A stretch of 64,000 nt of DNA, from IMG/VR virus record IMGVR_UViG_3300029544_000001; one strand, written 5' to 3'. The DNA is from a virus (lineage: Duplodnaviria; Heunggongvirae; Uroviricota; Caudoviricetes). Made by a program: the position numbers and the translations under genes. Each line of letters starts with the position of its first letter. Position 1 is the first letter of the stretch. Under the pieces are notes generated by a model. The model was not told where the DNA came from. It saw only the letters and a list, made by a program, of their open reading frames with translations, and made no database searches. This document shows positions 218 through 51,922 of the stretch, piece after piece.

Positions 218-243
218 AGGGCTCACCCGATAATCATTGGGGG
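218..243. repeat. IS left terminal inverted repeat
   Basis: matches the reverse complement of 1612-1637 at about 21 of 26 positions. Confidence 0.65.
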
Positions 244-1226
244 TATGCATAAATCTTAGCCAGTCTAAAGAGGAAGAATTTCTCATCCACTACTCCTCTT
301 AATGCGGTTCTGAATTGTTTGATTTTCGCATTAAAGGATTCAGCCGCCGCATTAGAGGATCTTTTATTATAAAAGTTAAGAATATCATCATAATGTTCAT
401 AGAAGGTTGCTGCAATTACATTGAAAGCATGAAAGCCTGCCTCTTCCACTTTATTATACCATTTAGCCATACTCAATCTTGCCGCATCTTTGATTGTATT
501 TTTGGCAAGAATCATTCTGAGTGAATGACATAATCCATACGCCTGTCCCAATTCCGGATATTCCTTAAAAAGAATTTTGGCTCTTTGTTTTTGTGCTGGG
601 GTCCATTTTTCGGAGGATTTAAACAGCAGATAGCGGCTTCTTGCCAACAGTTCTTTCTTTGAATCTCCATTTTCATATCTCATAGGCACATATGATTCCC
701 CTTTCTGCTTTGCTTCTTCCATCTCATCATTGGCTTCCTGGATTGCGTCCCAGCGGAGTTTGATACGCATTTCCTGCACTGCATCGCAAGCTAATTTCTG
801 GATGTGGAACCGGTCTATTACACGAGATGCCTTGCGGAAACAGAAGCGGACTATTTTACGCATTGAGTCCGATAAATCAAGTGTCACTTCTTCTACACTG
901 TCCAACAGGTGTTCGGGAATATGGCGTAAAGCCGCTATGACCGTCTCTGACTTCGTCCCTGCAACAATGGCGACAAGGCACATCTCACGACCATGCCTGT
1001 CCCTGTTGGTTACTATTGTATAAAGGTCGCCATTCGACAGGGAAGTCTCGTCAATAGCCAGATTAGGTCCAATGTTCTCAGGAAAGACAAGCCACTCTTC
1101 CGCATGGCTCAACTCTTCCCAATTACGATAACCGCTTAGCACATCCTTGTATTGCTTCTCAAAGGTAGATGCGTCAATATGATAGAAATCATCAAGCGTA
1201 CGGCAGGTCACCGGGGATGTGTCCAT
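234..1226 (-). pseudogene. ISL3-family transposase, C-terminal DDE segment (orfB); frame-shifted relative to orfA at a T6A4 run, so either disrupted or needs a frameshift
   Basis: 330 aa; C-terminal ...NAAAESFNAKIKQFRTALRGV... is typical of ISL3 transposases; combined length ~440 aa matches an intact ISL3 transposase. Confidence 0.6.
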
Positions 1227-1572
1227 ACGTTTCTTTTAAAAAAGCCGCAAACTCCTTGGAGTAGCGGGTGCCTTCGGCGGCTATTTTAAGAGGTAGAATA
1301 AAACTCTTGCCGGTACGAATATCAACCCATTTACGGCGTCGGAGCAAAAGGATTACTTTGTGGTCGCGGATGGGGAAATCGGTGATGGAAACCGCAGGAA
1401 TAAAACCTTTGGATTCAAAGTGAACATCATTACGTAAAGTATCGTACATCTTTTCATCAAGATGAATGTTAATCTCGGTATCGGTACTTTCTACCTTAGT
1501 TATATCAAACGAGGAAAGGACTTCGCTTGGTAGTACTATTTGAGCTAAAGATATTAATGCTGCTTCTGTCAT
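1192..1572 (-). CDS. ISL3-family transposase, N-terminal segment (orfA; zinc-finger/HTH region)
   Basis: 126-aa ORF directly upstream of the DDE part and overlapping it by 35 nt in another frame. Confidence 0.6.
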   Translation of the reverse strand: MTEAALISLAQIVLPSEVLSSFDITKVESTDTEINIHLDEKMYDTLRNDVHFESKGFIPAVSITDFPIRDHKVILLLRRRKWVDIRTGKSFILPLKIAAEGTRYSKEFAAFLKETYGHIPGDLPYA

Positions 1573-1637: not shown

Positions 1638-1928
1638 GTTTTCGGACTGACCCATTATTCCTTGATTTTCAGGCGGGCACTTGATATACAAAAAAAGAGG
1701 CAACCTTAGTTACCTCTTTTTTGTACACCCTCAGGGGGTAAAATTGATGTTGATAGTCAGATAATTATACATTTGGTATCATTTTAGTATCACATCCCAA
1801 TATTTCAATTCATCTACATTACCAACCATAGGTTAATAAATGTAGGATAGACTCACTTGTTTTATGTTTCAAAGATACAAAAGTTTTTAGACTATATAGA
1901 TTTAATTAGAGATTTTATTTTCGCTCTT

Positions 1929-2420
1929 CTAAGTATTTTCATCGGTCATACTATTTTGAATAACATCTGATATTTGTTGGAGGGAGTCAACAGATAACTG
2001 AAAAAGGTCTACTGACTTTATCTTGGTTATAAGTTGTTTCTTTCTTATCATTTCATAATATTGCTTTTTCAGACTTTCAGTAAGTACTGAAATGTAACTA
2101 CTACCCCATGTATCTGCCGGTATCTGACGACCATTTTGCTTTCTAAACTTTTCGGTTCCACAAATGATAGTAGTTGGAGTAACACGGTCTACTTTGAGTA
2201 TTTTTGAATAATAACGAGAATTATAATACACTTCATCTCCCGCTTCTATCTCATCCAGTGATTTTTTCATTTTCTGTTTTCTTATAAATGATTCGTAATG
2301 TTTACAAGGTTTCTTTCTGGCTGTAATTCGTCTTTTTAAGACTTTGCAATACATATAGAAATTCGTACATATCTCATAATGTTTACACTCGCTACAATGC
2401 CTATCATCATCTTCTTTCAT
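1929..2420 (-). CDS. hypothetical Cys-rich protein
   Basis: 163-aa ORF, CxxC pairs near the N-terminus. Confidence 0.4.
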   Translation of the reverse strand: MKEDDDRHCSECKHYEICTNFYMYCKVLKRRITARKKPCKHYESFIRKQKMKKSLDEIEAGDEVYYNSRYYSKILKVDRVTPTTIICGTEKFRKQNGRQIPADTWGSSYISVLTESLKKQYYEMIRKKQLITKIKSVDLFQLSVDSLQQISDVIQNSMTDENT

Positions 2421-3216: not shown

Positions 3217-3220
3217 TCTA

Positions 3221-3250
3221 TGGACCGGAAAATTTTCCGGTCCATTTTAT
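3221..3250 (+). terminator. Rho-independent terminator
   Basis: 10-bp perfect palindrome followed by TTTTATT. Confidence 0.6.
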
Positions 3251-3258: not shown

Positions 3259-3975
3259 TCATTTTACAATCTCCCAATCTTCGGCAAACACATCACTGAT
3301 GGATGGAACCCACGAATCAGCACGACCAGTATTCTCGTTGTAAATAAGGCACTGGCTTGTATAGTCAATGAAACCCTTGCCTTTTAAAATAAGGTCTTTT
3401 GCCGATTGATGAAGTGACTGCATCTTCGGAACAATATCGCTTTCGATGTGTGCCGGGACTTGCTTGATGACCCACAACCCCTTTCCATTCCAACCTTTTC
3501 TACGAATAGCAAGACCAAATTTCAACGCTTCGATTGCAACTCCGAAAGACATCCGATTAAACGGAGCGTTAGGAGCACCGTCAAGACATCCAATACGACA
3601 TTCAAGTGTTTTCACGTAATTACCCATCACTACTTGCTGTAAACGTAACAAGAATTTTTGGTAGTTGTCTGTTACCACTTCATCCATCTTTCCAGAATCA
3701 ATGAAAGCAACAAGTTTATCCAACTTATCATACAAGTCTTTCATCTCAATGTGCAAACGATCAAGAAAGGTATCTGCATACTTGTAATATTTCTCAAACG
3801 GTTCGGCAGGCAACCAACTTCTGTAACCATCTTCACCTTTAACATAATAACCTTGCTCTGTTTCTTCATGGTTCTCAATGTCCTTACCATAGGGATTTCT
3901 ACCTGTTTTTTGAACGAAACTGCCCAATGTCATAGGTTCGGCTTCAATCTGTCTTGTTCCAATATACTTTTTCAT
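3259..3975 (-). CDS. phage protein with C-terminal DUF2829-like module (M.FG.A.EALK.G..IRRKGW...)
   Basis: 238 aa; C-terminal motif MSFGVAIEALKFGLAIRRKGWNGKGLWV recognised by eye. Confidence 0.4.
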   Translation of the reverse strand: MKKYIGTRQIEAEPMTLGSFVQKTGRNPYGKDIENHEETEQGYYVKGEDGYRSWLPAEPFEKYYKYADTFLDRLHIEMKDLYDKLDKLVAFIDSGKMDEVVTDNYQKFLLRLQQVVMGNYVKTLECRIGCLDGAPNAPFNRMSFGVAIEALKFGLAIRRKGWNGKGLWVIKQVPAHIESDIVPKMQSLHQSAKDLILKGKGFIDYTSQCLIYNENTGRADSWVPSISDVFAEDWEIVK

Positions 3976-3995: not shown

Positions 3996-4193
3996 TTAAT
4001 AGTATTTGCGGAAAAATACTATTTGTGACGTTATGAACGAAAATAGAAATGTTAAAGCTATGCAGTAATTAGGAAGACCAAGCCAGCTAACAAATTCTGT
4101 GAGTGTACAAGCTATTGCCCATATACATAAGGCAATAACAGTTCCTTTTAATTCAATATAAAGTTTATCCATAATTATTTTACTTAAACACAT
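3996..4193 (-). CDS. small membrane protein (65 aa), uncertain
   Basis: hydrophobic ORF overlapping the next gene start by 14 nt. Confidence 0.25.
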   Translation of the reverse strand: MCLSKIIMDKLYIELKGTVIALCIWAIACTLTEFVSWLGLPNYCIALTFLFSFITSQIVFFRKYY

Positions 4194-4725
4194 TTAGAAA
4201 TGCCTTAATTGTCTGGCGCATATCATACACACACTGTGGAACAATGTCCTTTTCTGGAAGGCTATCAGCAAGTATCATATCACGCACCATAGTTGCTGAC
4301 ACGCCATCTTCACAAGTGTTTCTGGCAAGTAAAGATAGAGACACGTTATTCCTTAAAAGGAATCCTGGAAACCAAGATGTGATGGTCTCAAATCCATCAG
4401 AGTAATAGATTGTGAAATCAGATTGGTTGATTTTGCTAACAATAAACGAATAAAGATAAAAACCCCAATCGTGGCTGTTGTCAGATTCATCAGAAAGGTC
4501 AGCAAGCTCAACAATCTTCGTTTTTTCGTGAAGAGAATGGTCTTTAATCGCCTTTTCAACAAGTTGTTTTCGGATAGTCCAAGGTATCGGATTCCGTTTT
4601 GAGAGTTTATCTATTGAGCCAATAATAACTAAAACTTGCTCATTCTCGTCACAAGCCTTCTTTATCAGCTGTAGGTGTCCATTGTGTATAGGCTGGAACC
4701 GAGCCAATATTACTCCAGTTTTCAT
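4180..4725 (-). CDS. nadM: nicotinamide-nucleotide adenylyltransferase, NadM-type (nucleotidyltransferase HxGH superfamily)
   Basis: N-terminal ARFQPIHNGHL matches the archaeal/bacterial NMNAT GRFQPFHKGH motif; C-terminal GVSATMVRDMI matches the ISST..R-type motif; 181 aa. Confidence 0.65.
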   Translation of the reverse strand: MKTGVILARFQPIHNGHLQLIKKACDENEQVLVIIGSIDKLSKRNPIPWTIRKQLVEKAIKDHSLHEKTKIVELADLSDESDNSHDWGFYLYSFIVSKINQSDFTIYYSDGFETITSWFPGFLLRNNVSLSLLARNTCEDGVSATMVRDMILADSLPEKDIVPQCVYDMRQTIKAFLNVFK

Positions 4726-5152
4726 AATTACTATTTTTATCGAAAATAATTAGTTACTACTTCCATTTCTGGACACTTTAAGTTGATTGTTCACAACTCT
4801 ATTAGGATAATTTGTTGAGGAAGCAGGGAGAGTCGAAGACCCAGCCACTTTATAGCAGGACATTAACAGTGTGTTACTTTCATTTACCCATACTTCCTTT
4901 ACAAATGACAGCTTTTTGAGCAAAATATTTACCTTTGCAAGCAATATGACTAAACCTACGGGTAAATCGAATCATTTTAGCCAAGAGCGAAGAGACAATA
5001 TAGTTGCAATCAGTGTTGTCCTTCAGACAGTTATAGCTGTCATATCTCTTTTGATTCAACTTTGCGAATAGCCGCTGTCATTTTGATTTCACAACCATAT
5101 TAGCCCTATGGTTGTCATCTTTGGGGAGTAATTTCAACTCCCCATTTTTATG

Positions 5153-5223
5153 AGGCCCATGCAGGAATCGAACCTGCGATCATGGTTTTGCAGACCATTG
5201 CCTTACCACTTGGCTAATGAACC
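5153..5223 (-). tRNA. tRNA-Cys (GCA)
   Basis: 71 nt; acceptor GGTTCAT/ATGGGCC (two GU pairs), anticodon loop CTGCAAA, T-arm GCAGGTTCGATTCCTGC. Confidence 0.85.
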
Positions 5224-5306
5224 AGATAGCTGGAAGTTTCACAACTTCACAGCTTCGCGGAAAGAAAAATAAGCTAATCCAATAACAATCTTTTTAACCT
5301 TAAATG

Positions 5307-5378
5307 CGCTCTTAGATGGATTTGAACCACCGACCTGATGATTAACAGTCATCTGCTCTACCACTAAGCTATAAGAGC
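5307..5378 (-). tRNA. tRNA-Asn (GTT)
   Basis: 72 nt; acceptor GCTCTTA/TAAGAGC, anticodon loop CTGTTAA, T-arm GGTGGTTCAAATCCATC. Confidence 0.85.
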
Positions 5379-5423
5379 AAATGATGTCTTTATCTCCCTA
5401 ACCGACCCATCCCCTTTCGGCGA

Positions 5424-5447
5424 TGGTGGAGGAATCGAACACTCCCA
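5424..5447 (-). other. tRNA-like fragment: T-arm-like hairpin GGGAGTGTTCGATTCCTCC followed by ACCA; no complete cloverleaf could be folded
   Basis: GGTTCGATTCC-type T-loop motif without recognisable D or anticodon arms. Confidence 0.3.
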
Positions 5448-5470
5448 TAAAGACATCTAACATACCGATT

Positions 5471-5920
5471 CTACCAACAGCTCGGTATCACACTCCCGGA
5501 CCAACGATTCCGGACAGGGCTTAGTTTACTTGTATATTGACTTGTCTCAACATAACCTGCATGTTCGTTCCCTTGTACTTCGGGCTTGTTGTACTCGGTA
5601 ATGGAGTCGAACCATTCTTTTCTGCTCGAAAGGCAGATGTCCTTTCCGATAGACGAACCGAGCAAACAGCCGGATTTTTCACCGGCTTTTGGCCAAAAAG
5701 TTTTAACTTTGCAGCCGTAATGGAAATTTATTTGCTGTTGCTTGTCCTCCTTGTACGGGAAATTCGCGCCCTCGTAAAGGAAATCAAAAGACGATAAGCC
5801 GTCCGTAGGACGTAAAAACAACAATTGAGCTTTCTTGCCATTTGGAATGTGAAATACGATCGGTTCACAGGCATTCAAGCATTTTACATAATTTCCATCC
5901 AGAGGAATAAAGGGGTGCAA
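5471..5920 (-). CDS. hypothetical protein (149 aa), uncertain
   Basis: ORF with non-repetitive composition between tRNA genes. Confidence 0.3.
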   Translation of the reverse strand: MHPFIPLDGNYVKCLNACEPIVFHIPNGKKAQLLFLRPTDGLSSFDFLYEGANFPYKEDKQQQINFHYGCKVKTFWPKAGEKSGCLLGSSIGKDICLSSRKEWFDSITEYNKPEVQGNEHAGYVETSQYTSKLSPVRNRWSGSVIPSCW

Positions 5921-6028
5921 AACATTTTTCCAAGATGTTTCTTAACAACCCATGCAGCCATCCCAGCGAAACCAAAGTTGGAAACTACATGGATCGCACC
6001 CCTCCTCTTTCCAATTTATTTATGAGTT

Positions 6029-6820
6029 TTAATTCGTCATCTTCAGAAATTCTGGAATTACCCCATACAGCGGTGTTTTTCCGTCCCATTTATCAATAAA
6101 CTGTTTATATAGAATTTCTTTAGTTAACCCTTTCGATGTGATAAGAGCCTGTTCGGTTTTTAATCTTTCCAGTTCGTTTTGCTTTTTCTGCTCTTCGATT
6201 TTCTGATCAATAACGGAAATATTAGTGTTAACCTCGTTTCTATTATCAATCTTTTCCCGGACTCGATCGCTAAATTCTAATTGGGCTGAAAATGACTTCA
6301 GGTCCAATCCTCTATCTTTAAATTCCGCCCTAACAATATCCTCCAGCTTCTTCTCAAAAGCTAAAGAACCCCCATCAGCCATAAGTGTATCTGTTTTATA
6401 TTTCCGGCTTTCTTCTTTAATAAGGTCGTAAATACGTGGTTCCAGAATATTGTCTTCCAAAGATCTCATAAATCCATCTCCGTTTCCGATATGTTTATTA
6501 TCAAAAACAACGTCAATTGCCTTGTCTTTGATAACTCTATATGAGTATAACGGAGTAGCATTGAACTCTGTATTGTCAGCAGCTTTTAGGGTAACTGATT
6601 TCTGAAATCCTCCACGCTGTTCAAACAATGGCACCTGAAACAACTCTGTTCCCCATTCCCATGTGGAAACTTTTCCGGATACAATCTTAAAATCTTCTTT
6701 ACCTTCCTTACCATAATTCTCCATAAGGACACCGGCATAGTTAGGAGCAACACGCTCACAAGATGAAAAAATCACTGTTGCCATAAGAGCAACCAACATA
6801 AACTTAATCTTCGTTTTCAT
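6029..6820 (-). CDS. lipoprotein (signal peptide + lipobox VIFSSC) with coiled-coil C-terminal half
   Basis: N-terminal MKTKIKFMLVALMATVIFSSC; 263 aa. Confidence 0.55.
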   Translation of the reverse strand: MKTKIKFMLVALMATVIFSSCERVAPNYAGVLMENYGKEGKEDFKIVSGKVSTWEWGTELFQVPLFEQRGGFQKSVTLKAADNTEFNATPLYSYRVIKDKAIDVVFDNKHIGNGDGFMRSLEDNILEPRIYDLIKEESRKYKTDTLMADGGSLAFEKKLEDIVRAEFKDRGLDLKSFSAQLEFSDRVREKIDNRNEVNTNISVIDQKIEEQKKQNELERLKTEQALITSKGLTKEILYKQFIDKWDGKTPLYGVIPEFLKMTN

Positions 6821-7025
6821 GTTTTTTGATAATTAATTTAATGATGTTAATAACTGGATAGCAAACCCCAAAACATATAGCAATTCCCAACCAAGCGTCA
6901 ACATGATTGAATACTCTATTGCCTATGAATAAGACCGCTATCATAAAAAAGAATTGTTCTATATACTTTTTCATCGCATATTAAGTTTGGTATATTTCAA
7001 AGAACTCTTATTGACTTATGTCATT

Positions 7026-7111
7026 GTGCCGCAAACAGGAGTCGAACCTGCATTATCCATTCGGACAAATGGATTTTAAGTCCATCGTGTCTACCAATTC
7101 CACCATTGCGG
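7026..7111 (-). tRNA. tRNA-Leu (TAA), long variable arm
   Basis: 86 nt; acceptor GCCGCAA/TTGCGGC, anticodon loop CTTAAAA, T-arm GCAGGTTCGACTCCTGT. Confidence 0.85.
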
Positions 7112-7362
7112 CATCATCTTATCAAGCCTTAAAGAACAAAGAAAAAATCCGGATAAAGAATGAGTTTCGGGTTTTCATCTTCTCCAACTCTTTATTGTCT
7201 TTTCTCAATTTCTTAATGTCTGCTTTATTGGAAGACACGTGTGTTTTAGCTCTCGTATTCAACTCCACTAAGGACTGAACCAATTGTCTCAAATTGGCAA
7301 TAATATTTGCCCTTTCAGATATGATTTGCTCTTTCATACTATAATTAATTTAATTAGTTAGT

Positions 7363-7435
7363 GGCGGAGAGCCGGACTCGAACCGGCGACCTCTTGGTTA
7401 TGAGCCAAGCGAGCTACCAACTGCTCCATCCCGCT
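7363..7435 (-). tRNA. tRNA-Met (CAT) with defective acceptor stem (5' AGCGGGA versus 3' TCTCCGC); possible pseudogene or 1-nt indel
   Basis: D-arm, anticodon arm (CTTGG-CTCATAA-CCAAG) and T-arm (GCCGG-TTCGAGT-CCGGC) are canonical; only 4 of 7 acceptor pairs form; restoring GCGGAGA would give 7 of 7. Confidence 0.6.
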
Positions 7436-19354: not shown

Positions 19355-20992
19355 TTATGCAACCTTACGTTGCGTTGTTACTAATATTTTACATAATGCC
19401 TCACAAAGAACTCGTGCCATATTAACTTCTACGGCATTTCCTATATACTTTTTCTGTTCTGCTTTTGTTCCTATTAGCATATAATCTTCTGGGAATCCCA
19501 TAATACGTTTCAACTCTGGAATCGTTAGCATTCTCATTTTTATGTCGGAAATACCATACATAGCCATGAATTCCTTTATTTTCTTCATTACATCACTATC
19601 TGTGTCATATATCTCATATACCAGTCCTCCTGGAAACATCTTAATAAAGCCAGGTAGCTCTCCCTCTCCAGATGCTTCAATCAAATATGGTGGCATCTTA
19701 TCCATTCTAGCGATTAACGTAAAACAAGGTTTATCTACTGATCCACCAGCAGAATTAAATTGAGGATTCATCAAGTAATGCCATTTACGGTTTGCAGTAA
19801 TTACTGGTGCCGGTTGATTTATACTTGTGCCAACATTCTTAAAATTTGTATTTAAAATCCAAGGTTTACAGCTTACAAGGCTATATTTGGGATTAACAGT
19901 AATACAACCTAGTGGTTTATCCAGCGAAGAAGGCTTACTGTTTCCGTATTGTTGGTCAATAAACACAGAAGAAATTAATGAAAATCGGTCTTTTGTTGTT
20001 ACAGTTGGTGCTGGTTCATCTACAGATTTACAAAATCCATTTCCATAATGAACAGAAATAAATGCTTTTCCGGTTAGAATATTTAAACGGTTTATGCAAG
20101 CAACACCAAGTCGATTTTGAGTAGATATTACTGGACATGGATCCTCAACTCCCAGAGCATTGTACTTTCCAGCTTTACTCATTGAGTTATACTTAACCAT
20201 GAAGGCATCTTTTCCACCTGCTACAAACTTAATAAGTCCTGCATAAATTCTTAATAAAGAAGAATCTACTAAAGGTGTTTTCCGACCAAATATACTTTTC
20301 CCTTCATCATCAAAGTCTAACACTTCTCGTACTGCCTTCCAGTTCTTTAATTTTGGGTCTGGCTTTTTAGAATGGGTTTGCTCTGGAAAAACAATAGGTA
20401 AACTCCCTTTCGCAAATATTCCGAAAAATCTCTTCCTAGAAGTGTAAGCCCCATAGTCTGCTGAATTTAATATTTTATGTTCAAATTTGTAGCCATAAGA
20501 CCTTACGCTATCCAGCCATCTCAAATAAGATTTACCTTTATCACGACTAATGGGTTTACCGTACTCATCCAAATCTCCCCATGACATAAACTCTTCTACA
20601 TTCTCAATTTGAATATAGTCTGGGTTAATAGCCTCAATATACCGAAACAAGTGCTCTGCAAGTGTTCTACTATCTGCATCTCGTGGTTGACCACCTTTAG
20701 CTTTCGAGAAATTAGTACATTCCAACGAAGCCCATAAAACTATCAATGCTTCAGGGTATTCAGCTCTGCATTTTTGTAGATGGGAAACTAAAGGAGATAA
20801 ATTTAGTGTACGAATATCTTCTGTAAAATGAAGAGCGTCCGGATGATTAGCAGCATGACTTGCAATCGCATTTTTATCATGATTTACACATGCTATTACC
20901 TTAGCACATTGTTCATTCTCTAAACGGGCTTTTTCTACCCCTGTGCTGGTTCCACCGGCACCACAAAATAAATCTATATAAAGTAATTTCAT
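19355..20992 (-). CDS. DNA (cytosine-5)-methyltransferase, no recognisable adjacent restriction endonuclease
   Basis: motif I DLFCGAGG, PC-like ASLECTNFSKAKGG, ENV in IQIENVEEF, motif X GNAV; 545 aa. Confidence 0.75.
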   Translation of the reverse strand: MKLLYIDLFCGAGGTSTGVEKARLENEQCAKVIACVNHDKNAIASHAANHPDALHFTEDIRTLNLSPLVSHLQKCRAEYPEALIVLWASLECTNFSKAKGGQPRDADSRTLAEHLFRYIEAINPDYIQIENVEEFMSWGDLDEYGKPISRDKGKSYLRWLDSVRSYGYKFEHKILNSADYGAYTSRKRFFGIFAKGSLPIVFPEQTHSKKPDPKLKNWKAVREVLDFDDEGKSIFGRKTPLVDSSLLRIYAGLIKFVAGGKDAFMVKYNSMSKAGKYNALGVEDPCPVISTQNRLGVACINRLNILTGKAFISVHYGNGFCKSVDEPAPTVTTKDRFSLISSVFIDQQYGNSKPSSLDKPLGCITVNPKYSLVSCKPWILNTNFKNVGTSINQPAPVITANRKWHYLMNPQFNSAGGSVDKPCFTLIARMDKMPPYLIEASGEGELPGFIKMFPGGLVYEIYDTDSDVMKKIKEFMAMYGISDIKMRMLTIPELKRIMGFPEDYMLIGTKAEQKKYIGNAVEVNMARVLCEALCKILVTTQRKVA

Positions 20993-23924: not shown

Positions 23925-25097
23925 TTATGATCTACAAACACAGATATATTCCCCAGCAATCTTATATTCTTCATGCCGTCCATCCCAAGAATTAAGTACC
24001 GAGCACCAACCATCCTCATTTATGATTGAATCCAACCAATCACTCAATGAATCAGTAGTTCTTTGAGCCGCCACAGATTCACGCCATAAATACGCGTATT
24101 CATCATCATTATGTACTATATCATTAGCTATATTGGTCAGTTCATCTTCCGTGCCAATATAATAATCAATACCATTTGCACAGTATAGTTGTTCACCATA
24201 GGAACATTCTTCAAATGTATCATTCAAATCACCGAATGTACATCCCAAATGTACTCCCAAAGCTACGAAGCGTTTTGCTTCATCTTCGTCACATTCACGT
24301 AAATCCATTACTTGCTGGATGATTTCTTTTGTGGCAATAAACCCTTCTTTCCCCATGTCAAAAACCGCTTCCAGTTCTTCTGTTAACGCAGTTTCTTCTT
24401 CTTCAACAAGGTCACAAATATTATTTATGATCCCTTCAATATTATCTGGAAGCGGACTGTATAACCAGCCATTACCATATTTATATCCATTATCTACATA
24501 TAAGCCTTTTATAGCAAGAAAGAAACATTTTACGTTGTAGTCTGAAGATGTATGGAAGCATTTGTTTGACAATCCAAGGATATATTGAATGGGATTATTC
24601 CTCATTTTCTCATAAAGCACATTTCTCACCTGTATTATAGCCGCGTCACTAATATTAAAATTCTTAACAAGAATCTGAAAAGAAATATCATCAAACTGTT
24701 CACGGTAATGTTCATTATATGTTTTAAACAACTCCACAAAGTAATTGTAGTCGTTAACATATTGCTCACCGTTTAAATATTCATCTTGACGAACTGTACC
24801 GCCAGACATACCACCTAGATGATATTTGTTCCAAAATTCCAAAAGTTTCTTTTGTCCTTCTGTACGAGGATTTATATGATCGTAGCATTGCCCAGCACTC
24901 ATACCACCAGCCCCACATACCGAAACGCTGAAACTTTGTTTAAATTTTTGCAATGTTTCACGGTTTATACGAGTAGATTCTTCTTTATAAACCTCAAAAT
25001 CTACAGTCCAACTGTTTTTATTTTGGTCCCGAAATTGGACGGAACGTTTGAATATTATATCGTTTCTCATAATCAATCTTTCTAATTTTATTTTCAT
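23925..25097 (-). CDS. hypothetical protein
   Basis: 390 aa; no P-loop. Confidence 0.45.
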   Translation of the reverse strand: MKIKLERLIMRNDIIFKRSVQFRDQNKNSWTVDFEVYKEESTRINRETLQKFKQSFSVSVCGAGGMSAGQCYDHINPRTEGQKKLLEFWNKYHLGGMSGGTVRQDEYLNGEQYVNDYNYFVELFKTYNEHYREQFDDISFQILVKNFNISDAAIIQVRNVLYEKMRNNPIQYILGLSNKCFHTSSDYNVKCFFLAIKGLYVDNGYKYGNGWLYSPLPDNIEGIINNICDLVEEEETALTEELEAVFDMGKEGFIATKEIIQQVMDLRECDEDEAKRFVALGVHLGCTFGDLNDTFEECSYGEQLYCANGIDYYIGTEDELTNIANDIVHNDDEYAYLWRESVAAQRTTDSLSDWLDSIINEDGWCSVLNSWDGRHEEYKIAGEYICVCRS

Positions 25098-25148
25098 AAA
25101 CCAGAGGAAATGTACCTAAACTGGTTTATGAAAACTGCCTTGATTAAG

Positions 25149-26138
25149 TTATTTACGCCATTCCTTCATTTTAGCAACCACATCAATGTTGTTGTCATCC
25201 AGCGTTTTCTTCAACATACCAATCAAACGCCAACCTTCTCTATTCTCGTACAACTTTGCCTTCTTATTCAAAAAAGCAAGGGACGCGTTTTTACTTAATG
25301 TTTTTCCATTGTCATCAATGATAACGCAATTATGAAAACGAATCATGTTCTGCATTGTAAAGAACGCTCCAGCTCCTTTGTAAGCATCTAGCCATGCTGC
25401 ATTTTGAGGAGTACCCCAATGCATTTTGATACGCCTTTTATTGAACTCCTGCACCGAATGCCAAAGTTCATAAGTGTTTTCGGCATGTTGTATTTTATGT
25501 ACTGCAAACAACAATGGCTTGATTACTTTTTTATCAAAATCATCAACGAAAATGTTTTGGCCGTTGATACGTTTATACGGTACCCCTTTACATTTTCTCA
25601 ATTTCAACTTCTCAAATCTCTTTTTGAGTTTCTCGATATAGTCTTTTGCCATATCTAATACCACTCTTTTGTTGAACCAGCGATTTCGATCTCTGAAATT
25701 ATCGACATCACCATTCTGCATCATTTTGTGCTGGGCGTACAACTCGTTATTTAGCATCTTCCACTGATATTCATATCCCATATTACGAATCACCTCTGAA
25801 ACTCCAATTGGCTTATAAGCACCGTGGGTATTGGTAGTTATATAAATTATGCGGAACATCTGTGCCATTACCCAACGTCTGAATAATTGCCGATTAGGAA
25901 TTGTGCCTTGAATTATAATGGCCTGGAAGATTGGATCATCTTCTTCCAAGATACTAATGACACCATCTCTTTTTGAGGCTATAAACTCCAAACCATCTGC
26001 ACTTTGCATTGCAAAAAGCTCACTAACATCAACACCAGCTTTCTTTAGAGCTTCAATACGCTCCTTAGCTTTGGTTTGATTAGCTGTAAGCGTAAACTCG
26101 GTACCACACTCAGGACATTCAAATTTTAACTGTTTCAT
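25149..26138 (-). CDS. hypothetical protein with N-terminal zinc ribbon (CPECG)
   Basis: 329 aa. Confidence 0.45.
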   Translation of the reverse strand: MKQLKFECPECGTEFTLTANQTKAKERIEALKKAGVDVSELFAMQSADGLEFIASKRDGVISILEEDDPIFQAIIIQGTIPNRQLFRRWVMAQMFRIIYITTNTHGAYKPIGVSEVIRNMGYEYQWKMLNNELYAQHKMMQNGDVDNFRDRNRWFNKRVVLDMAKDYIEKLKKRFEKLKLRKCKGVPYKRINGQNIFVDDFDKKVIKPLLFAVHKIQHAENTYELWHSVQEFNKRRIKMHWGTPQNAAWLDAYKGAGAFFTMQNMIRFHNCVIIDDNGKTLSKNASLAFLNKKAKLYENREGWRLIGMLKKTLDDNNIDVVAKMKEWRK

Positions 26139-26172
26139 AACTTATTAATAATTTAATTTTTAGTCTGATTAT

Positions 26173-26769
26173 TTATTTCTCTACTGTAACCCAGTTTTTG
26201 AGAATTACTAAATCTCTATCTTTGTTGCTTTGCCAAAACCATTTACCCATTTTATTAGCATCCCAACCTATACCCAATATTATTTGACAGAGAATGTATA
26301 ATTCCAATTCGACTTGTGCTATATCTCGACCAACTCCAAACAACATGTCTTCATCCTCCAAATCTTTATCAGACAAAGCCTTAAAGTATTTTCGGCTTTT
26401 ACATTCACTCATTGTTGATGGAATAGAATGTTTATATCGAGTATATAAATGCTCTACATTAGACAGAAACTCATCAAGAGAAGCGCATAATTCCACACCT
26501 AAGTCTCCCTCATACTGCGAATTCTGTATAATATATTGGCCATTAAGTTTGAAACTTCGTGTTTTAAAATCTACTTTAAACTTGGTTCCGTTCTCTACAG
26601 CCTGTATTGATTCTTGATAAATATTTTTCATAATGTTTACTTTTGATTTTATACTCAAACCTTTGACACATTTCTTTAAAAGCCTGATATTAACATCCAG
26701 AATACGCCGGAATAAAGGTTTATAAAACCGTAGATGCCGGCGTAATTGTCGGATAGTTGTTAAACGCAA
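26173..26769 (-). CDS. hypothetical protein
   Basis: 198 aa. Confidence 0.4.
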   Translation of the reverse strand: MRLTTIRQLRRHLRFYKPLFRRILDVNIRLLKKCVKGLSIKSKVNIMKNIYQESIQAVENGTKFKVDFKTRSFKLNGQYIIQNSQYEGDLGVELCASLDEFLSNVEHLYTRYKHSIPSTMSECKSRKYFKALSDKDLEDEDMLFGVGRDIAQVELELYILCQIILGIGWDANKMGKWFWQSNKDRDLVILKNWVTVEK

Positions 26770-26866
26770 GGTTCTTGTATAAATGAAAGTTGTGTTACTT
26801 ATAAAACAGCCCCCATTTAGCGTGACACATGTCTATATGTTTATGATATATACTGTATCAAGTAAT

Positions 26867-26918
26867 GCCCGCGTAATCCTAGGTCATACATAGGATGACC
26901 GTCATCACGCGGGCATCA
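26867..26918. repeat. nested perfect hairpins (ATGCCCGCGT...ACGCGGGCAT enclosing GGTCAT...ATGACC)
   Basis: 10-bp outer and 6-bp inner perfect inverted repeats. Confidence 0.5.
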
Positions 26919-27099
26919 TATCTTGTCCAGTATGTTAAATTACTAAATCCCAGACTGTAAACTTTGTGTTAAGTAATAAGTTGTAATTCTCAAAATATTG
27001 GCACATTTCTATACTTATTCGATTTAAAGCTGGTGTGATCAGGAACGGACCAGGACAATTAGTACTCGGCCCTTCCTGATATATAACCAGCTATATAAA

Positions 27100-27649
27100 T
27101 GATATTTCTTGAATTACATTTCTGTGCTAAATAGTTATCCTCATAATACTGATACATTACTTTACCCAATAGATGTAATCCGGTTGGATTATCCTGGACC
27201 CGACAGATATAATCTTCGGTTCCAGGATATAATTTCTACCGGAGTAGTGAAAATATATTCCTTGGATAACTTCGATGTATTTCGCTTATTTTACAAGTCC
27301 TCAAATGAATGGCACATCACTTTACTCTCATGATAATTATAAATATGACCTGATCGAGAACCTGAGGTGAGAGGCTATGCAGCCTTGTAACCTCCGGTGA
27401 ACGATCAATAGTTCATACTTTAGAATATGAAATTTTCTTCTTGAACTTGCCTGCTGTGCTGCTTTATAAACCCTCATAACAATCGACACATTTCTTTATC
27501 TTCATTGATATAATCCAGATGATTATATGGTACCCGGAGTAGATACTGAAGGATGTAATCCTTCAAGGATAGAATCGGGGTACCTAATATATAATCTGGA
27601 TATTAAACACTTGTTCCTCGGATTCATTTACTGTGTGTTCAGATTGTAG
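27100..27649 (-). other. structured non-coding region downstream of the RT gene with two related hairpin modules (27160-27290 and 27500-27600)
   Basis: shared CCGGAGTAG and GATATAAT motifs; long-range pairs GGTACCCCG/CCGGGTACC and TCCTGGAACCG/CGGGTCCAGGA. Confidence 0.35.
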
Positions 27650-28918
27650 TTACAATATTGCCACTAAAGTATTGTACGCTGCTCTTCTGGTCAAAATAGC
27701 ATTCTGCATACAACCTATTGTCAAATAACCTTCAATTTCTTTACTCTTAGATTTATTTCGATTAGCCTTTACGTTCCGACCAATACCTCTAACAACACAA
27801 CCATCCGGCTTATCCTTAACATAGCCAAGGCCACCAACTTTATGTTTCCCAGTTTCAACGGCTCTAAGGCAATCCATTACGAATTTATTCAATTCATTAA
27901 TATCAACCCGAACATTACATACTGGAAGGGTCTGAGTCGCCCAACTATATTCTCCATTGCCTTTATATAAATATCGGTTAACCGAATCCACAGCCTTCTT
28001 CAACGTAATACCACGTTTTCTGATGGTTCTTGATTCTATTTCTTTCTGGAAGGTTTTAAGACGATTGGGAGAGAAAGAAATCATACTTCCCTTAATGCTG
28101 AAACCTAGAAATTTGAACCACTTGTCCATAGTCAGGTACTCTACTTTCTTGGGATTCAAATTCATTGATTTTTCGGCCAATCTCTTTTGTAAAATGGTCA
28201 TAGCCTTTTCATAGTCCGGACCAACGAACAACATATCATCCGAATACCTTACGTAAAACCCATTCAATTGGGACAGTTCATCATCCAAGCTATATAGCAA
28301 CACGTTGGCTAACCAGCTTGCTACTGCGCATCCTTGTTTAAGTGATTGATATTTCTCATGCAGTTCGTTGTTCTCATCGAAATACAATCCGCAATGATAG
28401 TATTTTCTTAATACATCAATTAACACAGAGTGACCATACTTAGCTTCCACCTTATCAAAAGCTGCGTCAATAAACCGGATAGGAACAGTGTCGAAATATT
28501 TACTTAAATCAGATTTCCAGCCCACATAACCATCACTTTTCATGTCAACAATTGTGTGACTTACTTCCAGAACCACTTTACCGCAACCAATACCGACCTG
28601 ATAAGATTTACAAGCAGGATGAATCATCTCTGGCATTAAATCAAATAGCAAATCATTCGCGATGCTTAGGATTATACGATCAATAGGTTCGTTGACATAT
28701 ACAGTACGAAACTCTCCGTTATCCTTCGGAATTTGTGCAATATGTGGTGGTGTTATTTGATATTTACCATTCAACATAGCTTCTGCCATACGAATTCTGG
28801 TTGGTTCTTCTGTCAGTTTGATAAGTTCGCTCTTCCGAATATCCTTCAGAACGCCTTTCTCAATTGCTTTTGTCCATCTATTAATGTCGAAGAACATTGT
28901 AAGAATCTTATCTTTCAT
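27650..28918 (-). CDS. reverse transcriptase (RT domains 1-7; class unresolved)
   Basis: IPKDNGEFRTVYVNEPIDRII, DLSKYFDTV, QGCAVASWLANVLL, YVRYSDDMLFVG, NPKKVEYL, FLGFSI. Confidence 0.75.
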   Translation of the reverse strand: MKDKILTMFFDINRWTKAIEKGVLKDIRKSELIKLTEEPTRIRMAEAMLNGKYQITPPHIAQIPKDNGEFRTVYVNEPIDRIILSIANDLLFDLMPEMIHPACKSYQVGIGCGKVVLEVSHTIVDMKSDGYVGWKSDLSKYFDTVPIRFIDAAFDKVEAKYGHSVLIDVLRKYYHCGLYFDENNELHEKYQSLKQGCAVASWLANVLLYSLDDELSQLNGFYVRYSDDMLFVGPDYEKAMTILQKRLAEKSMNLNPKKVEYLTMDKWFKFLGFSIKGSMISFSPNRLKTFQKEIESRTIRKRGITLKKAVDSVNRYLYKGNGEYSWATQTLPVCNVRVDINELNKFVMDCLRAVETGKHKVGGLGYVKDKPDGCVVRGIGRNVKANRNKSKSKEIEGYLTIGCMQNAILTRRAAYNTLVAIL

Positions 28919-29238
28919 TTTATATCTCCTTTCTTTTTGAGTTGTTCCTTATATCTCCTGTGCTCACGAATTGTTGCTGCCCATTCTGCTTTTGTAGGTT
29001 TGTATCGCCCTTCTGCTTTACGTTGTTTTAAACTCTCTTTATTTTTCAAATATTTGTCTGGGCAACAAATAAATTGAATAAGACGCTTGCTCACTCCAAA
29101 TATTTTAGCAAGTTTAGAGTAACTGATTAATTGCTTTTCTCTCAACCATTTTATATATTCTTTTTGGTCTGGAGTGAGCTTTATTCGTCTATCATATTTG
29201 GTTCCAGCGATACGAATCTTTTCTGATTTATACGGCAT
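28915..29238 (-). CDS. small basic HTH protein; paralog of 22925..23233, upstream of the RT with 4-nt overlap
   Basis: MPYKSEKIRIAGTKYDRRIKLTPDQKEYIKWLREKQLISYSKLAKIFGVSKRLIQFI. Confidence 0.55.
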   Translation of the reverse strand: MPYKSEKIRIAGTKYDRRIKLTPDQKEYIKWLREKQLISYSKLAKIFGVSKRLIQFICCPDKYLKNKESLKQRKAEGRYKPTKAEWAATIREHRRYKEQLKKKGDIK

Positions 29239-29830
29239 CGTTTTGAGGAAACATTAAATCATCGTGCAGGTTATTGAGACACCGTTCATCGAACCAACGC
29301 CAGACATCGAACTTTGGTGTTCCGGCTGGGAAGTTGAGGAAGTCTTCTTCAATCTCATCATCATTGTTTACCGGAATATCCCCAAACATTTCCCATAATT
29401 CTGAAAGGGTGCATAATTCTACATGCTCTTCACAAATATTACACCAGCAATCTTCTTCCTCAACTGAATCATTATAGCTGATTTCATCTGTGTTTGGATT
29501 TACCCATGCTCTTTCTTCAACATTATTACTTCCACATTTGGGGCAATACAATGTGTCTAATGACCTTATCCCCTTCTTTTTAAACACTATGTCAAACTGT
29601 TTGAGATTTGAAAGTTCGGTGAGAACCATTTCTGTAATAAAGGCTCTCATCTTATTAATCTGTTCATCTGATGATATTCCCCATATATTAGCCGCAGCTT
29701 GTACTGCATTTTGTATGGAAAAACAGATTTGAGTCCAATCATCATACTCTTTTTTATCTTCGAGGATTTCATGGATTAGCGTTTTTGCTTTCTCAATATA
29801 TTCTTGATTGAATGATTTTGATGTTTTCAT
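29228..29830 (-). CDS. hypothetical protein with zinc ribbon
   Basis: 200 aa; CPKCG ... CNIC. Confidence 0.4.
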   Translation of the reverse strand: MKTSKSFNQEYIEKAKTLIHEILEDKKEYDDWTQICFSIQNAVQAAANIWGISSDEQINKMRAFITEMVLTELSNLKQFDIVFKKKGIRSLDTLYCPKCGSNNVEERAWVNPNTDEISYNDSVEEEDCWCNICEEHVELCTLSELWEMFGDIPVNNDDEIEEDFLNFPAGTPKFDVWRWFDERCLNNLHDDLMFPQNDAV

Positions 29831-30059
29831 ATCCTATTGTGTTAAGTTCTTCTAACAATGACCGATATTCTTGTTCAGTAGCTAAAGGCCAATTTTTCAG
29901 AATGTCAGGAGAGCAACCGGCGTGTTGTCCGATGTGCATATAGCTTGTCAATTTAGTTTTGGACCTATCCCAAAATTCATTCACAAATACAGCACATATT
30001 TCTCCTTCTTCTGGAGATTTTACGAAAGTTATTTTTGTTTCATTTTTCATACATATCAA
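29793..30059 (-). CDS. small hypothetical protein
   Basis: 88 aa. Confidence 0.3.
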   Translation of the reverse strand: MICMKNETKITFVKSPEEGEICAVFVNEFWDRSKTKLTSYMHIGQHAGCSPDILKNWPLATEQEYRSLLEELNTIGYENIKIIQSRIY

Positions 30060-30406
30060 TTGTTGTTATACCATTCTATTTCAGCATCATTTGCTTCACG
30101 ATACAGCATATATACACCACCAATAGTTGAGTTGTAAATAAGGATGTATCCATCCTTTTGATGTACGGAATCAGTGCCATTATTCACCCACCTTGGTTCT
30201 TCGCTGCGAATATCATCGTCAGCCCATTCATCGCTATCCCATTGCTTCAGATAATCAATAACAGCTTCTCCATTCGCATCGGTAAAGACAGTTCCAGACC
30301 CTTTACCATCGTACAGTTTATCACATTCGTCCAGCATATCTCCGTACTGGACATCAATTACAATTCTATAAAGCTTTCGATTTTCCATTGAACTTAAATG
30401 CGGCAT
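30056..30406 (-). CDS. hypothetical protein
   Basis: 116 aa. Confidence 0.35.
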   Translation of the reverse strand: MPHLSSMENRKLYRIVIDVQYGDMLDECDKLYDGKGSGTVFTDANGEAVIDYLKQWDSDEWADDDIRSEEPRWVNNGTDSVHQKDGYILIYNSTIGGVYMLYREANDAEIEWYNNN

Positions 30407-30592
30407 AACTATCTTTTCTTATTGCGTTTACGATCTCTTCTTATTTGTTTCTTATTGCGCCCACTTTTAGTGGACGAACCTTTATATGCAGGAGGAACCC
30501 GTCTCCACGGAGTCGATTTCTCTTCATAGTCTTCTACTCTCTCAAAATAGACGGTAGGTGGATTTTCAAATAATATCATATTCATTCTTTAT

Positions 30593-30841: not shown

Positions 30842-31037
30842 ATCTATTCTGTTTTGAGGGCTATTTAATTTCTCCTATTTCATATTTCTGTTTACCGAAG
30901 TAAAATCCAAAACATAGCCATTCAAACTCAAATTCATGGTTGTGTAAATTGATATTTATTGCCGGCAACAATGCCCAAAACTGAACATCAAAGTCAATAT
31001 CTATTTTAAAAGTCCTTCTATTCATATCTTATTTATT

Positions 31038-44439: not shown

Positions 44440-46398
44440 TTAACCATTCAAAAATTCACAGAATTCTTCAATTGATAAAATTGGTATCCCCAATAATTTG
44501 GCCTTGGATATTTTTGATGAGTTGGCAGATTTGTCCTTCACCACCAAATGTGTTGTTTTTTTAGACACCCCACTAACAATTTTTCCTCCTTCGTTGGTGA
44601 TTACTTCTTCAAGATTACTATCTCGAAATCCTGATACACAGATGGACAAACCTTTACATTTACCTTCCAGCACAACGGTCTTTGGGGACAATTTGTAAGG
44701 TATTTTAGTTTCCTCTAAAAAGGCCATAAATGGAAAATACCCTAACAATAAGTTTTGTACAGTTATAGGACAATTTTTAAAGTCTTCGCTTTGAACATCC
44801 GGTTCGTGATTGATATACCACCCTTGACAGAACGAGCATAAATCCTCATCATCCATTTCATCCAATATTTTTTGGGCTTTTATTTTTCCTATTCCTTTAA
44901 AGCAATCGCTGGCTTGCATTAAAGTCGCCAAATCAACTCCTTGCATGATTTTTCTGTTATTCTCCAATATTATATTTGAAATACTGTCTCCGAATCCTTC
45001 GATTTTTATCAGATCGTTAAAAGTAACGTTAAGAATCGCCGGTATAGAAGTAAAGCCTGCATTGAATATTTTGGATAATGTTTCTTCTCCCATATTTTCA
45101 GCCCCACATGTCAAATAGAAAAATATAATTTTAGCTAATTGAACACCTGGACAACTAGGATTAGTGCAACACAGTTCTATGTGATTCTCATTCCACATAG
45201 TCGATGAACCACAATGAGGACACTCTGACATTTCATCCCATAATTTTTCTTGTTCTTCTTGTGTTGCTGGGCTAAGAGTTGAGAGAATCTTAGGAATTAC
45301 CCCTCCAGAACGGGTAACTAATATTTCAGCCCCCTTCGCTATTTCGTGATCATTAATCCAACCGGCATTATATCCAGTAGGATTTTCCATGTTACAATCT
45401 CCAGTATCAACCATTTCAATATTGACCACAGGTTTAAGGGCACCTGACTTACTGACTTTCCATACAATACCCTTAACTGTTGTTTCAAAAGATTCTGTAA
45501 AATCTGGATGTTTGTAGGCAATAGCATATAATGGATTTCCAGATGTTTGATGTCTGCCAATAACTTCCCATAAGCGCAAATCATCAACATAAATTACAAT
45601 ACCATCAATTGGATATATCTTACTCCACTCTTTGAATAAATTCATCAGTAGCTCTTCATTCAGTTCATCTATAAAAGCGAAATGGTAAAGATGCTCTTGT
45701 TGATAGATATTACAAATAGTTTCTATCAGACTATGGAAGTTGTTATAATCATGTAGGGAACTCTCATCCACTCCATATCTGAAAAAAGAAGCGTGTTCAA
45801 GATAATCACACGGCTCATCTCTATTTAAAAGACCGGCAGCTGTATTACGTGGTGATTTAAAAATATCTCCTGTGAATTTAGAACGTTTTCCATGAAAATG
45901 TTGCTCCCAATCACTTCTGTTGATGACAAATTCTCCAAAAGTATAATGAAAACTGCTGGCCGGATTATAACATTGAGTGGATGCTTGATAATGGTTAGTA
46001 CAATCTTGTCCTTCATTTTCTATCCCGCCACGAGAATATGCCTCACCTGTTAATTCATTATATAGTAGAGAAAGACCATCCAGCTTAGGCATACATACTA
46101 CACCTGCATTTCCTTTCAAGCCTAAAGACATATACCATTTTTTAAGTTCTGATATATCCTTTACTTTATTTAAAGATTTCATTGGGATTGGCAAAGCCCG
46201 TTTTCGGGTTTCAGACACAAAAGCGGGTTCGGTATGTTTGAACCATTCATTGTCTGGATCAAGTGTTTTTAATAGTTCTATTTCTGCATCATACTCCGCA
46301 TCTGAGATTTCTGGCGTACCCATACGATACATTTTATTGTGTCGCTTGACCCTATCAAGCAACGCATCTTTTGTTTCAACTGTAAAATTAAGCTCCAT
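44440..46398 (-). CDS. ligA: NAD+-dependent DNA ligase (LigA-type)
   Basis: adenylation motif MPKLDG (KxDG), Cys4 zinc finger CPHCGS...CTNPSCP, C-terminal BRCT-like segment; 652 aa. Confidence 0.8.
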   Translation of the reverse strand: MELNFTVETKDALLDRVKRHNKMYRMGTPEISDAEYDAEIELLKTLDPDNEWFKHTEPAFVSETRKRALPIPMKSLNKVKDISELKKWYMSLGLKGNAGVVCMPKLDGLSLLYNELTGEAYSRGGIENEGQDCTNHYQASTQCYNPASSFHYTFGEFVINRSDWEQHFHGKRSKFTGDIFKSPRNTAAGLLNRDEPCDYLEHASFFRYGVDESSLHDYNNFHSLIETICNIYQQEHLYHFAFIDELNEELLMNLFKEWSKIYPIDGIVIYVDDLRLWEVIGRHQTSGNPLYAIAYKHPDFTESFETTVKGIVWKVSKSGALKPVVNIEMVDTGDCNMENPTGYNAGWINDHEIAKGAEILVTRSGGVIPKILSTLSPATQEEQEKLWDEMSECPHCGSSTMWNENHIELCCTNPSCPGVQLAKIIFFYLTCGAENMGEETLSKIFNAGFTSIPAILNVTFNDLIKIEGFGDSISNIILENNRKIMQGVDLATLMQASDCFKGIGKIKAQKILDEMDDEDLCSFCQGWYINHEPDVQSEDFKNCPITVQNLLLGYFPFMAFLEETKIPYKLSPKTVVLEGKCKGLSICVSGFRDSNLEEVITNEGGKIVSGVSKKTTHLVVKDKSANSSKISKAKLLGIPILSIEEFCEFLNG

Positions 46399-51870: not shown

Positions 51871-51922
51871 CAAACTTACAACCATTAAAGAAGCTGATAC
51901 CTATTCTTGTGAAAAAGCTCAA

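Follow-up and report, generated by a model that had tools for sequence, protein, structure and literature searches.

A predicted stand-alone NMN adenylyltransferase in a Bacteroides-type prophage, linked to a putative anti-Thoeris sponge

A prophage of Bacteroides type that is very common in the human gut carries a gene for a predicted nicotinamide mononucleotide (NMN) adenylyltransferase (NMNAT). The gene lies within the 64,000-nucleotide stretch of DNA analysed here (the window; IMG/VR record IMGVR_UViG_3300029544_000001, Caudoviricetes), on the minus strand at 4180..4725 with its ATG at 4725 and its TAA at 4180-4182, and encodes a protein of 181 amino acids. Sequence profile and predicted structure place it in the archaeal/NadM lineage of NMNATs, as a divergent form that stands alone, and the reaction predicted for it is almost certainly NMN + ATP → NAD+ + PPi (i.e. 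formation of nicotinamide adenine dinucleotide and pyrophosphate). On balance the enzyme probably recycles NMN and tops up NAD+ in a single step, serving the phage's own NAD+-dependent DNA ligase (LigA) and the general NAD+ pool alongside an adjoining gene for a predicted sponge.

Restoration of NAD+ by phages, through the NAD+ reconstitution pathways NARP1 to NARP3, is a recently recognised counter to NAD+-depleting defences, with Bacillus, Vibrio and Enterobacteriaceae phages as the subjects studied. What is new here is a stand-alone, Nudix-less NMNAT in phages of Bacteroidota, without Nampt and tightly linked to a Sequestin-Tad2 sponge; present evidence does not make this a system of a new type. 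An extremely prevalent human-gut prophage, and a family of at least 880 related phage proteins, thus provide the final enzyme of NAD+ synthesis without its known partners. If the enzyme is active, a large family now called "cytidyltransferase" would gain a better annotation, and the phages of Bacteroidota would join the conflict over NAD+. This raises the question of what use an NMNAT might be to a phage that lacks Nampt; the candidates are recycling of the NMN generated by LigA, and salvage of nicotinamide by the host.

Identity of the 181-residue protein

The open reading frame (ORF) is genuine rather than due to chance: 4178 blocks of a public assembly collection contain the identical 181-amino acid protein, and there are 882 homologs at E ≤ 1e-3 and 1397 matches among cluster representatives at 50% identity. 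In public records the family is named just "cytidyltransferase" or "adenylyltransferase/cytidyltransferase family protein". The protein has a single domain, with neither a Nudix nor a kinase domain. The original prediction took it for an NMNAT on the strength of two motifs, ARFQPIHNGHL (residues 8-18) and SATMVRD (residues 143-149). Both are present and the identity has stood, but the motifs alone do not establish it because the scores of the sequence fall below the curated cutoffs; it is the family profile and the structure that do so, and these place the protein with the NadM/archaeal type. In the single-sequence search only generic models passed their cutoffs (PF01467 at 37 bits and TIGR00125 at 41.8 bits). 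The best specific matches were families of NMN adenylyltransferases, every one of them far below its curated cutoff.

An alignment of 83 sequences, reaching down to about 25% identity, was used both as a profile and as the basis of a structural model. The profile matched, over the full length of the structures, solved NMNATs from M. jannaschii (1f9a, E = 8.5e-27) and M. thermoautotrophicum (1ej2, 8.3e-25), and the NadM structures of F. tularensis (2qjt, 3.7e-25) and Synechocystis (2qjo, 3.5e-24); NMNAT structures overall fell between 8.5e-27 and 4e-22. The adenylyltransferase domains of NadR gave E-values of 5e-13 to 1e-8. Structures of phosphopantetheine adenylyltransferase (PPAT) were matched at about 1e-6 (1.3e-6 or weaker) and over the N-terminal 60-80 residues only, and TagD at 4.5e-3. 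The NCBIfam models for NMNAT (NF002243, NF003786, NF003791 and NF003787) were matched by 83/83 members of the family. A search with the same 83 sequences as a hidden Markov model (HMM) found no second NMNAT-like gene in the window or in Bacteroides phage BS-TP1 (PQ571274.1). The latter is the nearest isolate, with a complete genome of 111.7 kb and an ortholog (gp96) that is 70% identical.

The AlphaFold2 model of the 181-amino acid protein, calculated on the 83-sequence alignment, has a pLDDT of 94.7 and a pTM of 0.90. In a Foldseek comparison with the PDB, ranks 1-16 were occupied entirely by the NMNATs of M. thermoautotrophicum and M. jannaschii or by NadM (TMq 0.66-0.75, identity 18-26%). 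PPATs came next, with TM-scores of 0.64-0.70 and identities of 12-18%. As these TM-scores are just slightly lower, the fold alone discriminates weakly.

In the profile alignments the invariant residues R9, H17 and R148 of the family correspond to R11, H19 and R136 of the M. thermoautotrophicum enzyme, i.e. to the residues mutated in PDB entries 1m8f, 1m8g, 1m8k and 1m8j according to their titles. G36-S37, the sequence RNP at 44-46 and R52 align with G38-S39, R47-D-P and R55 of the archaeal protein, and D76, W87, R135 and S143xT145 align with D80, W87, R127 and S131xT133. Conservation across the 83-sequence family reaches at least 90% for G36-S37, N45-P46, R52, D76, W87, R135, S143 and T145, with R44 below that level. 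The N-terminal GxFxPxHxGH motif takes the form ARFQPIHNGH (residues 8-17), with a Q11 that 90% or more of the 83 homologs share, and the C-terminal ISxTxxR motif that of VSATMVR (residues 142-148). The pyridine-nucleotide site is represented by D76, W87 and, from the R/xNPF motif, N45-P46, which both align and are conserved; W87 of the M. thermoautotrophicum enzyme is a stacking partner of the nicotinamide ring. The subfamily also has motifs of its own that are absent from the archaeal and NadM enzymes, namely a strongly conserved DLSDESDNSHDW loop, YYSDGFE and WFPGFLLR.

NAD+ pathway partners and the phage DNA ligase

The original prediction linked the enzyme to the reconstitution of NAD+ following its depletion by defence systems. 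NADases of the TIR and SIR2 types leave ADP-ribose (ADPR) and nicotinamide. An NMNAT alone cannot rebuild NAD+ from these, so a complete pathway cannot be upheld, and the enzyme therefore needs a source of NMN. Among the phage routes to NAD+, NARP1 comprises Adps and Namat, and NARP3 comprises PnuC and a NadR-like protein. NARP2 is made up of Nampt and Nmnat, and 94% of phages bearing Nampt encode Nmnat too (bioRxiv 10.1101/2024.02.11.579819).

No Nampt or phosphoribosyl pyrophosphate synthase (Prs)-like partner had been recognised earlier, and we found none in all 64 kb by Pfam, tblastn or HMM search. The Pfam scan covered 40 ORFs of the window (every ORF of at least 350 amino acids, most of at least 160 and some of the shorter ones) and gave no match to NAMPT_N/NAPRTase, Pribosyltran, PnuC, kinase or Nudix families. 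Partial and full-length phage Nampt sequences gave no tblastn match in the window, in BS-TP1 or in the 10 kb beyond the window, and an HMM of 26 Nampt sequences, run with --max on the six-frame translation, returned noise only (E > 1). Phage Prs gave no tblastn match, and phmmer --max with it on six-frame translations gave noise at E > 1. Nor did these partner searches find anything in the complete BS-TP1 genome (loci L001, L016 and L020) or in the 10 kb past the right end of the window, where sister copies of the prophage have baseplate and tail-fibre genes only. As far as this can be tested, a partner is absent genome-wide, including from the complete BS-TP1; this is a result that the original prediction had itself named as one that would refute it.

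Neither a Prs-like Adps nor a NAPRTase-like Namat, as in NARP1, was found by tblastn, phmmer --max or Pfam analysis of the scanned ORFs, and there is no Nampt, as in NARP2, in the window, the 10 kb beyond or BS-TP1. The NMNAT has no fused ribosylnicotinamide kinase and its neighbours have no PnuC or kinase match, as NARP3 would have. The locus is none of NARP1, NARP2 and NARP3; the defining partner of each was sought and not found. The suggestion of a novel second step likewise finds no candidate among the neighbours.

In some relatives a Nampt gene is linked. Related loci were collected using an alignment of 20 sequences, that of 83 sequences being too diverse for this search, and co-occurrence was judged mostly within ±10 kb. 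Relatives with 74-77% identity (Muribaculaceae/Bacteroidales contigs) have a 503-amino acid NAMPT_N+NAPRTase gene ~9.4 kb downstream of the NMNAT gene, with Band_7 and a seemingly gene-less interval ahead of it. Nampt lies within 10 kb in this one lineage only (L002-L005, L146 and L150) of about 100 loci and is absent from the other ~90 examined; of 31 viral Nampt contigs, none is among the 80 NMNAT contigs listed. In the sampled ±10 kb of phages with Nampt, the present family is the sole NMNAT candidate seen. The linkage therefore supports the assignment of NMN as substrate by association, with the pairing limited to one lineage.

The Nampt of the sister lineage is ~77% identical to that of crAss-like Bacteroides phages, e.g. 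DAC15, where it is in a module with Prs. Among DAC15 (L145; NC_055832.1 80785-97753) and the loci L101-L131, we observed this module in crAss-like Bacteroides phages in the order Nampt, small ORF, Prs; searched with the 83-sequence HMM, the surrounding 17 kb yielded no NMNAT-like ORF. A Nampt with 97% identity to the one in L003-type Muribaculaceae phages occurs in some viral contigs, pointing to movement of the Nampt module between unrelated phages.

One NMN-producing reaction is encoded by the phage itself. The LigA-type ligase that had been proposed at 44440..46398 (minus strand, 652 amino acids) is confirmed by its Pfam adenylation, OB and BRCT domains, which score above their cutoffs, and by full-length alignment with T. 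filiformis LigA (1dgs). The alignment takes in YR..PEISDAEYD of the NMN-binding domain Ia as well as KLDG, the lysine motif of adenylation, and the Zn finger and HhH elements are also present. The protein is nevertheless divergent, with a TIGR00575 score of 225 bits vs a cutoff of 444. LigA consumes NAD+ and releases one NMN for each nick sealed. That such a ligase is unusual in phages is true insofar as it is uncommon, but it is well known, with homologs in 208 of 50,697 phage records, mostly of jumbo and Bacteroides phages. The window and BS-TP1 (gp50 and gp96) each have both LigA and the NMNAT, as do three long viral contigs of this lineage, and a jumbo-phage contig (L085) has a LigA-like ORF 2.8 kb from an NMNAT homolog. 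Directly downstream of LigA (43731-44318, minus strand) is a gene for a 195-amino acid protein of the Phage_integrase family, a length below that of a typical tyrosine integrase; its position is kept in BS-TP1 (gp51).

The adjoining sponge gene and the prophage

The NMNAT gene is followed on the same strand by an ORF (3259..3975, minus) encoding a 238-amino acid fusion of Sequestin and Tad2-like domains. Both gathering thresholds are passed, i.e. those of PF21825 (53.4 vs 24.8 bits) and PF11195/DUF2829 (66.5 vs 25 bits); PF21825 is labelled crAss001_48 in the Pfam copy used and Sequestin in newer naming. Sequestin and Tad2 are published sponges that sequester the cyclic ADPR (cADPR)-type signals of Thoeris (bioRxiv 10.1101/2025.07.12.664507; 10.1101/2023.05.01.538930), and it was by way of fusions with sponges already known, Tad2 among them, that Sequestin was found (bioRxiv 10.1101/2025.07.12.664507). 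From its domains, the product of the ORF is predicted to be a sponge for signals of this kind. In almost every copy with 97-100% identity the sponge gene comes directly after the NMNAT gene, and in relatives that are 68-76% identical it lies within 1-7 kb of it.

A perfect palindrome with an 11-bp stem (3220..3245, minus strand) begins 13 nt past the stop codon of the sponge gene and is followed by an A/T-rich stretch with a run of seven T. This hairpin, a match to consensus only, is the probable end of an NMNAT-sponge transcription unit; its position and T-run suggest a single unit, and the two genes are probably co-transcribed. Between them is a 65-amino acid hydrophobic ORF (3996..4193, minus), a candidate gene that overlaps the NMNAT stop by 14 nt; it has no family match, and is present in some prophage copies and absent from others. 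Upstream of the NMNAT gene are five tRNA genes (Cys-GCA, Asn-GTT, Glu-TTC, Leu-TAA and Met-CAT; 5152..7434, minus), interleaved with a lipoprotein-like gene (phrog_200; 6029-6820, minus). The order along the NMNAT strand is thus tRNAs and lipoprotein-like gene, NMNAT, 65-amino acid ORF, sponge fusion. No PADLOC defence model matches any gene of the cluster. A downstream ORF of 173 amino acids was considered as a nicotinamide riboside kinase and rejected, as it lacks a P-loop, matches neither PDB nor PHROG entries and has no detectable homolog. No neighbour is conserved family-wide, and the neighbourhoods vary by clade. In one relative with 61% identity (L007, 12258-16581) the NMNAT-like gene has Peptidase_C26/GATase, COOH-NH2 ligase and GATase_6/7 genes within 2-3 kb downstream, i.e. 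an amidoligase-type cluster.

The element is an integrated prophage of which the window holds a part, since it continues past 64000. Its end lies at 1684..1929; in blastn comparisons with L008, L011 and L012 the similarity to sister copies stops at 1684-1735, and the flanks differ beyond this. From 1684-1735 rightwards the window is >99.6% identical to the sister copies, and the NMNAT gene is ~2.45 kb from the prophage end. In sister copies with an identical NMNAT (L008-L013) host-type genes (UxaC, LacI, mannitol dehydrogenase and others) start ~2.5 kb downstream, one of these copies (L011) having a different flank of conjugative-element genes. Copies of the structural module were found on assemblies of 3.1-6.8 Mb. 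We note that near-identical copies thus have at least two different host flanks, mostly UxaC/LacI with conjugative-element genes in L011, and that the head module at 48424-53194 is Mu-like (Portal_Mu, Mu-like protease and Mu F). The differing flanks and the Mu-like head raise the question of whether a phage of ~100 kb may integrate at variable sites. An ISL3-family insertion sequence (215-1640) abuts the prophage end and is absent there from the sister copies. Its transposase (PF01610, 168 bits) is split by a frameshift into ORFs 234..1226 and 1192..1572 on the minus strand, and its terminal inverted repeats lie near 215-232 and 1626-1640 (GGGCTCACCCG / CGGGTGAGCC).

Several other genes of the prophage were observed in passing. 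An Abi_2 gene (56682-57572, minus strand; PF07751, 149.5 bits) stands in the opposite orientation within the tail module, between a DUF2586 sheath-like region and the tape-measure gene, and is probably a prophage-borne defence moron. A reverse transcriptase gene (27650-28918, minus; RVT_1, 73 bits), upstream of the NMNAT region, is kept in BS-TP1 and all sister lineages. It is possibly part of a diversity-generating retroelement, the target of which may sit elsewhere, e.g. in a tail fibre beyond the window; as regards a template/variable pair, a search of 25000-31500 gave no direct repeat at least 60 bp long. A 545-amino acid C-5 cytosine DNA methyltransferase (19355-20992, minus; PF00145, 122 bits) probably serves anti-restriction self-methylation.

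Possible role and comparison with known systems

Our proposal builds on the homology and fold of the protein, the conservation of its catalytic residues, the order of the genes and the lack of partner enzymes, and from these we infer the substrate, the source of NMN and the physiological role. As no NARP partner is found in the phage, the likeliest source of NMN is the phage LigA together with the host NMN pool. LigA would release NMN at each adenylation, and the NMNAT would re-adenylylate it with ATP to give NAD+. This recycling would keep LigA in cofactor and clear an inhibitory product, so that NAD+ might be held up while the adjoining sponge blocked activation of the Thoeris NADase. NMN is described as a potent inhibitor of LigA, and its scavenging as securing the NAD supply of the ligase (PMC3680494). 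More tentatively, the two enzymes might form a self-contained cofactor loop, in which all the nick-sealing of the phage is driven by a small catalytic pool of NAD+/NMN; we regard this as possible but rather unlikely. If true, the loop and the double sponge would amount to a Nampt-independent protection of NAD+-dependent replication, by sequestering the signal and recycling the cofactor, that is distinct from NARP1, NARP2 and NARP3.

A number of observations weigh against assignment of the protein as an NMNAT that recycles NMN for LigA. The 181-amino acid protein scores under the NMNAT cutoffs, with 52.5 vs 127 bits for NF002243 and 42.2 vs 181 bits for TIGR01527, and 46.2 vs 449 for the NadM-Nudix equivalog. 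The loop ahead of W87 is four residues longer than in archaeal enzymes, so that the specificity for NMN or nicotinic acid mononucleotide (NaMN), or the acceptor itself, could differ. In relatives with 54-60% identity the gene adjoins ATP-dependent DNA or RNA ligases (and dUTPase) instead. The pairing with LigA is particular to this lineage. A general association of NMNAT with LigA in sequenced phages was not seen: among the GenBank phages listed (the best 60 of 82 for NMNAT and the best 60 of 208 for LigA, so that the overlap is a lower bound) only BS-TP1 is in both sets of matches; most of the NMNAT-bearing ones are T4-like. Moreover, recycling of NMN derived from LigA cannot restore NAD+ that has already been cleaved to ADPR and nicotinamide. 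Finally, there might conceivably be a distant Nampt for this exact element, more than ~10 kb past 64000 or in the host genome.

One alternative is that the gene is one half of a counter-defence of NARP2 type, in which the NMNAT mainly rebuilds NAD+ after NADase action and the step from nicotinamide to NMN is provided by the host or elsewhere. The setting lends this something, the anti-NADase context being stronger than the original prediction knew. The gene adjoins an anti-Thoeris double sponge, the Muribaculaceae sister phages have Nampt in the same accessory arm, and in published NARP2 the two enzymes go together. Set against this are the negative searches of the window, the 10 kb beyond and the whole of BS-TP1 for Nampt, Namat, Prs and Adps, the restriction of nearby Nampt to the single sister lineage, and the lack of overlap between the viral Nampt contigs and the listed NMNAT contigs. 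We therefore do not uphold the full pathway, and the half-pathway we consider a minority possibility. The gene might instead be a functionless remnant left after the loss of Nampt, which is absent here and present in a sister lineage, or a hitch-hiker. This is very improbable for an unbroken ORF that thousands of assemblies contain in identical form, that has catalytic residues invariant in the family down to ~25% identity, and is kept without Nampt in several divergent lineages.

Alternatively the fold and chemistry could be retained with another acceptor, either NaMN, which would make the enzyme a NadD-like bypass, or some other phosphorylated ribosyl compound, for instance an immune signal derived from ADPR or the breakdown product of such a signal. 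The family lies below every curated NMNAT cutoff, its conserved DLSDESDNSHDW loop and the YYSDGFE and WFPGFLLR motifs are not seen in archaeal or NadM enzymes, and the neighbouring protein is predicted to bind cADPR-type signals. This is nonetheless unlikely, given the conservation of the Trp and Asp that align with W87 and D80 of M. thermoautotrophicum, of RNP and of all the mapped phosphate-binding arginines. In addition, the best-matching families are NMN-specific, and it is Nampt, a maker of NMN, that is linked in the sister phages. Least probable of all, to the point of being nearly negligible, is a different HxGH nucleotidyltransferase (PPAT/CoaD, TagD, RfaE domain II, the citrate-lyase ligase domain or FAD synthetase), even though only the generic PF01467 and TIGR00125 models pass their cutoffs and PPATs have similar TM-scores. 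TagD, CoaD and RfaE had been named at the outset as identities that would overturn the assignment. PPAT/CoaD was rejected since its models score 31.7 vs a cutoff of 103 and cover residues 9-63 only, with profile matches some 20 orders of magnitude weaker than those of NMNATs, which align over the full length, and with lower identity in the structural comparison. TagD was rejected by its E-value of 4.5e-3 vs 8.5e-27 for NMNAT, RfaE on grounds of profile and coverage, and citrate-lyase ligase (CitC) because the Citrate_ly_lig match is weak (23 bits, residues 6-62).

Returning to an NMNAT that recycles NMN, we can compare it with the systems already known. The archaeal NMNATs (M. jannaschii MJ0541, 1F9A; M. 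thermoautotrophicum, 1EJ2/1HYB) are among the closest. They too have a single domain of ~170-180 amino acids with the HxGH and SxTxxR motifs, they give the full-length profile match and the best structural matches, and the residues aligned with R11, H19, R47, R55, D80, W87 and R136 are conserved. However, the phage protein is only 22-26% identical to them, has the four-residue longer loop before the Trp and its own YYSDGFE/WFPGFLLR motifs, fails the TIGR01527 and NF002243 cutoffs, and is carried by phages of Bacteroidota and not by archaea. The bifunctional NadM-Nudix enzymes (F. tularensis 2QJT, Synechocystis 2QJO and NatV of Vibrio phage KVP40), which are the Nmnat half of NARP2, share a homologous adenylyltransferase domain, and all the distant phage matches in tblastn are proteins of this kind; the sister phages pair NMNAT with Nampt as NARP2 does. 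By contrast the phage protein has no Nudix/ADPR pyrophosphatase domain and is ~20-28% identical, and neither the prophage nor BS-TP1 has Nampt. The NadR-like Bas30_86 of NARP3, which acts with a PnuC-like transporter (PMC13464706), has an adenylyltransferase domain in the same NadR/NadM branch of the superfamily, but no ribosylnicotinamide kinase domain or PnuC-like transporter was found here.

BS-TP1 is a syntenic phage that has the "cytidyltransferase" gp96, LigA (gp50) and a DUF2829/Tad2-like protein (gp86), and likewise lacks Nampt and Prs. It differs in that the sponge-like gene is ~5.4 kb upstream of gp96 rather than adjoining it, and the annotation is generic. In its proposed task the enzyme resembles the bacterial NMN deamidase PncC (PMC3680494), i.e. 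removal of the NMN that inhibits LigA and its conversion back to NAD+. The two enzymes are unrelated, and where the PncC route converts NMN to NaMN and then requires NadD and NadE, the NMNAT would achieve the same in one ATP-dependent step.

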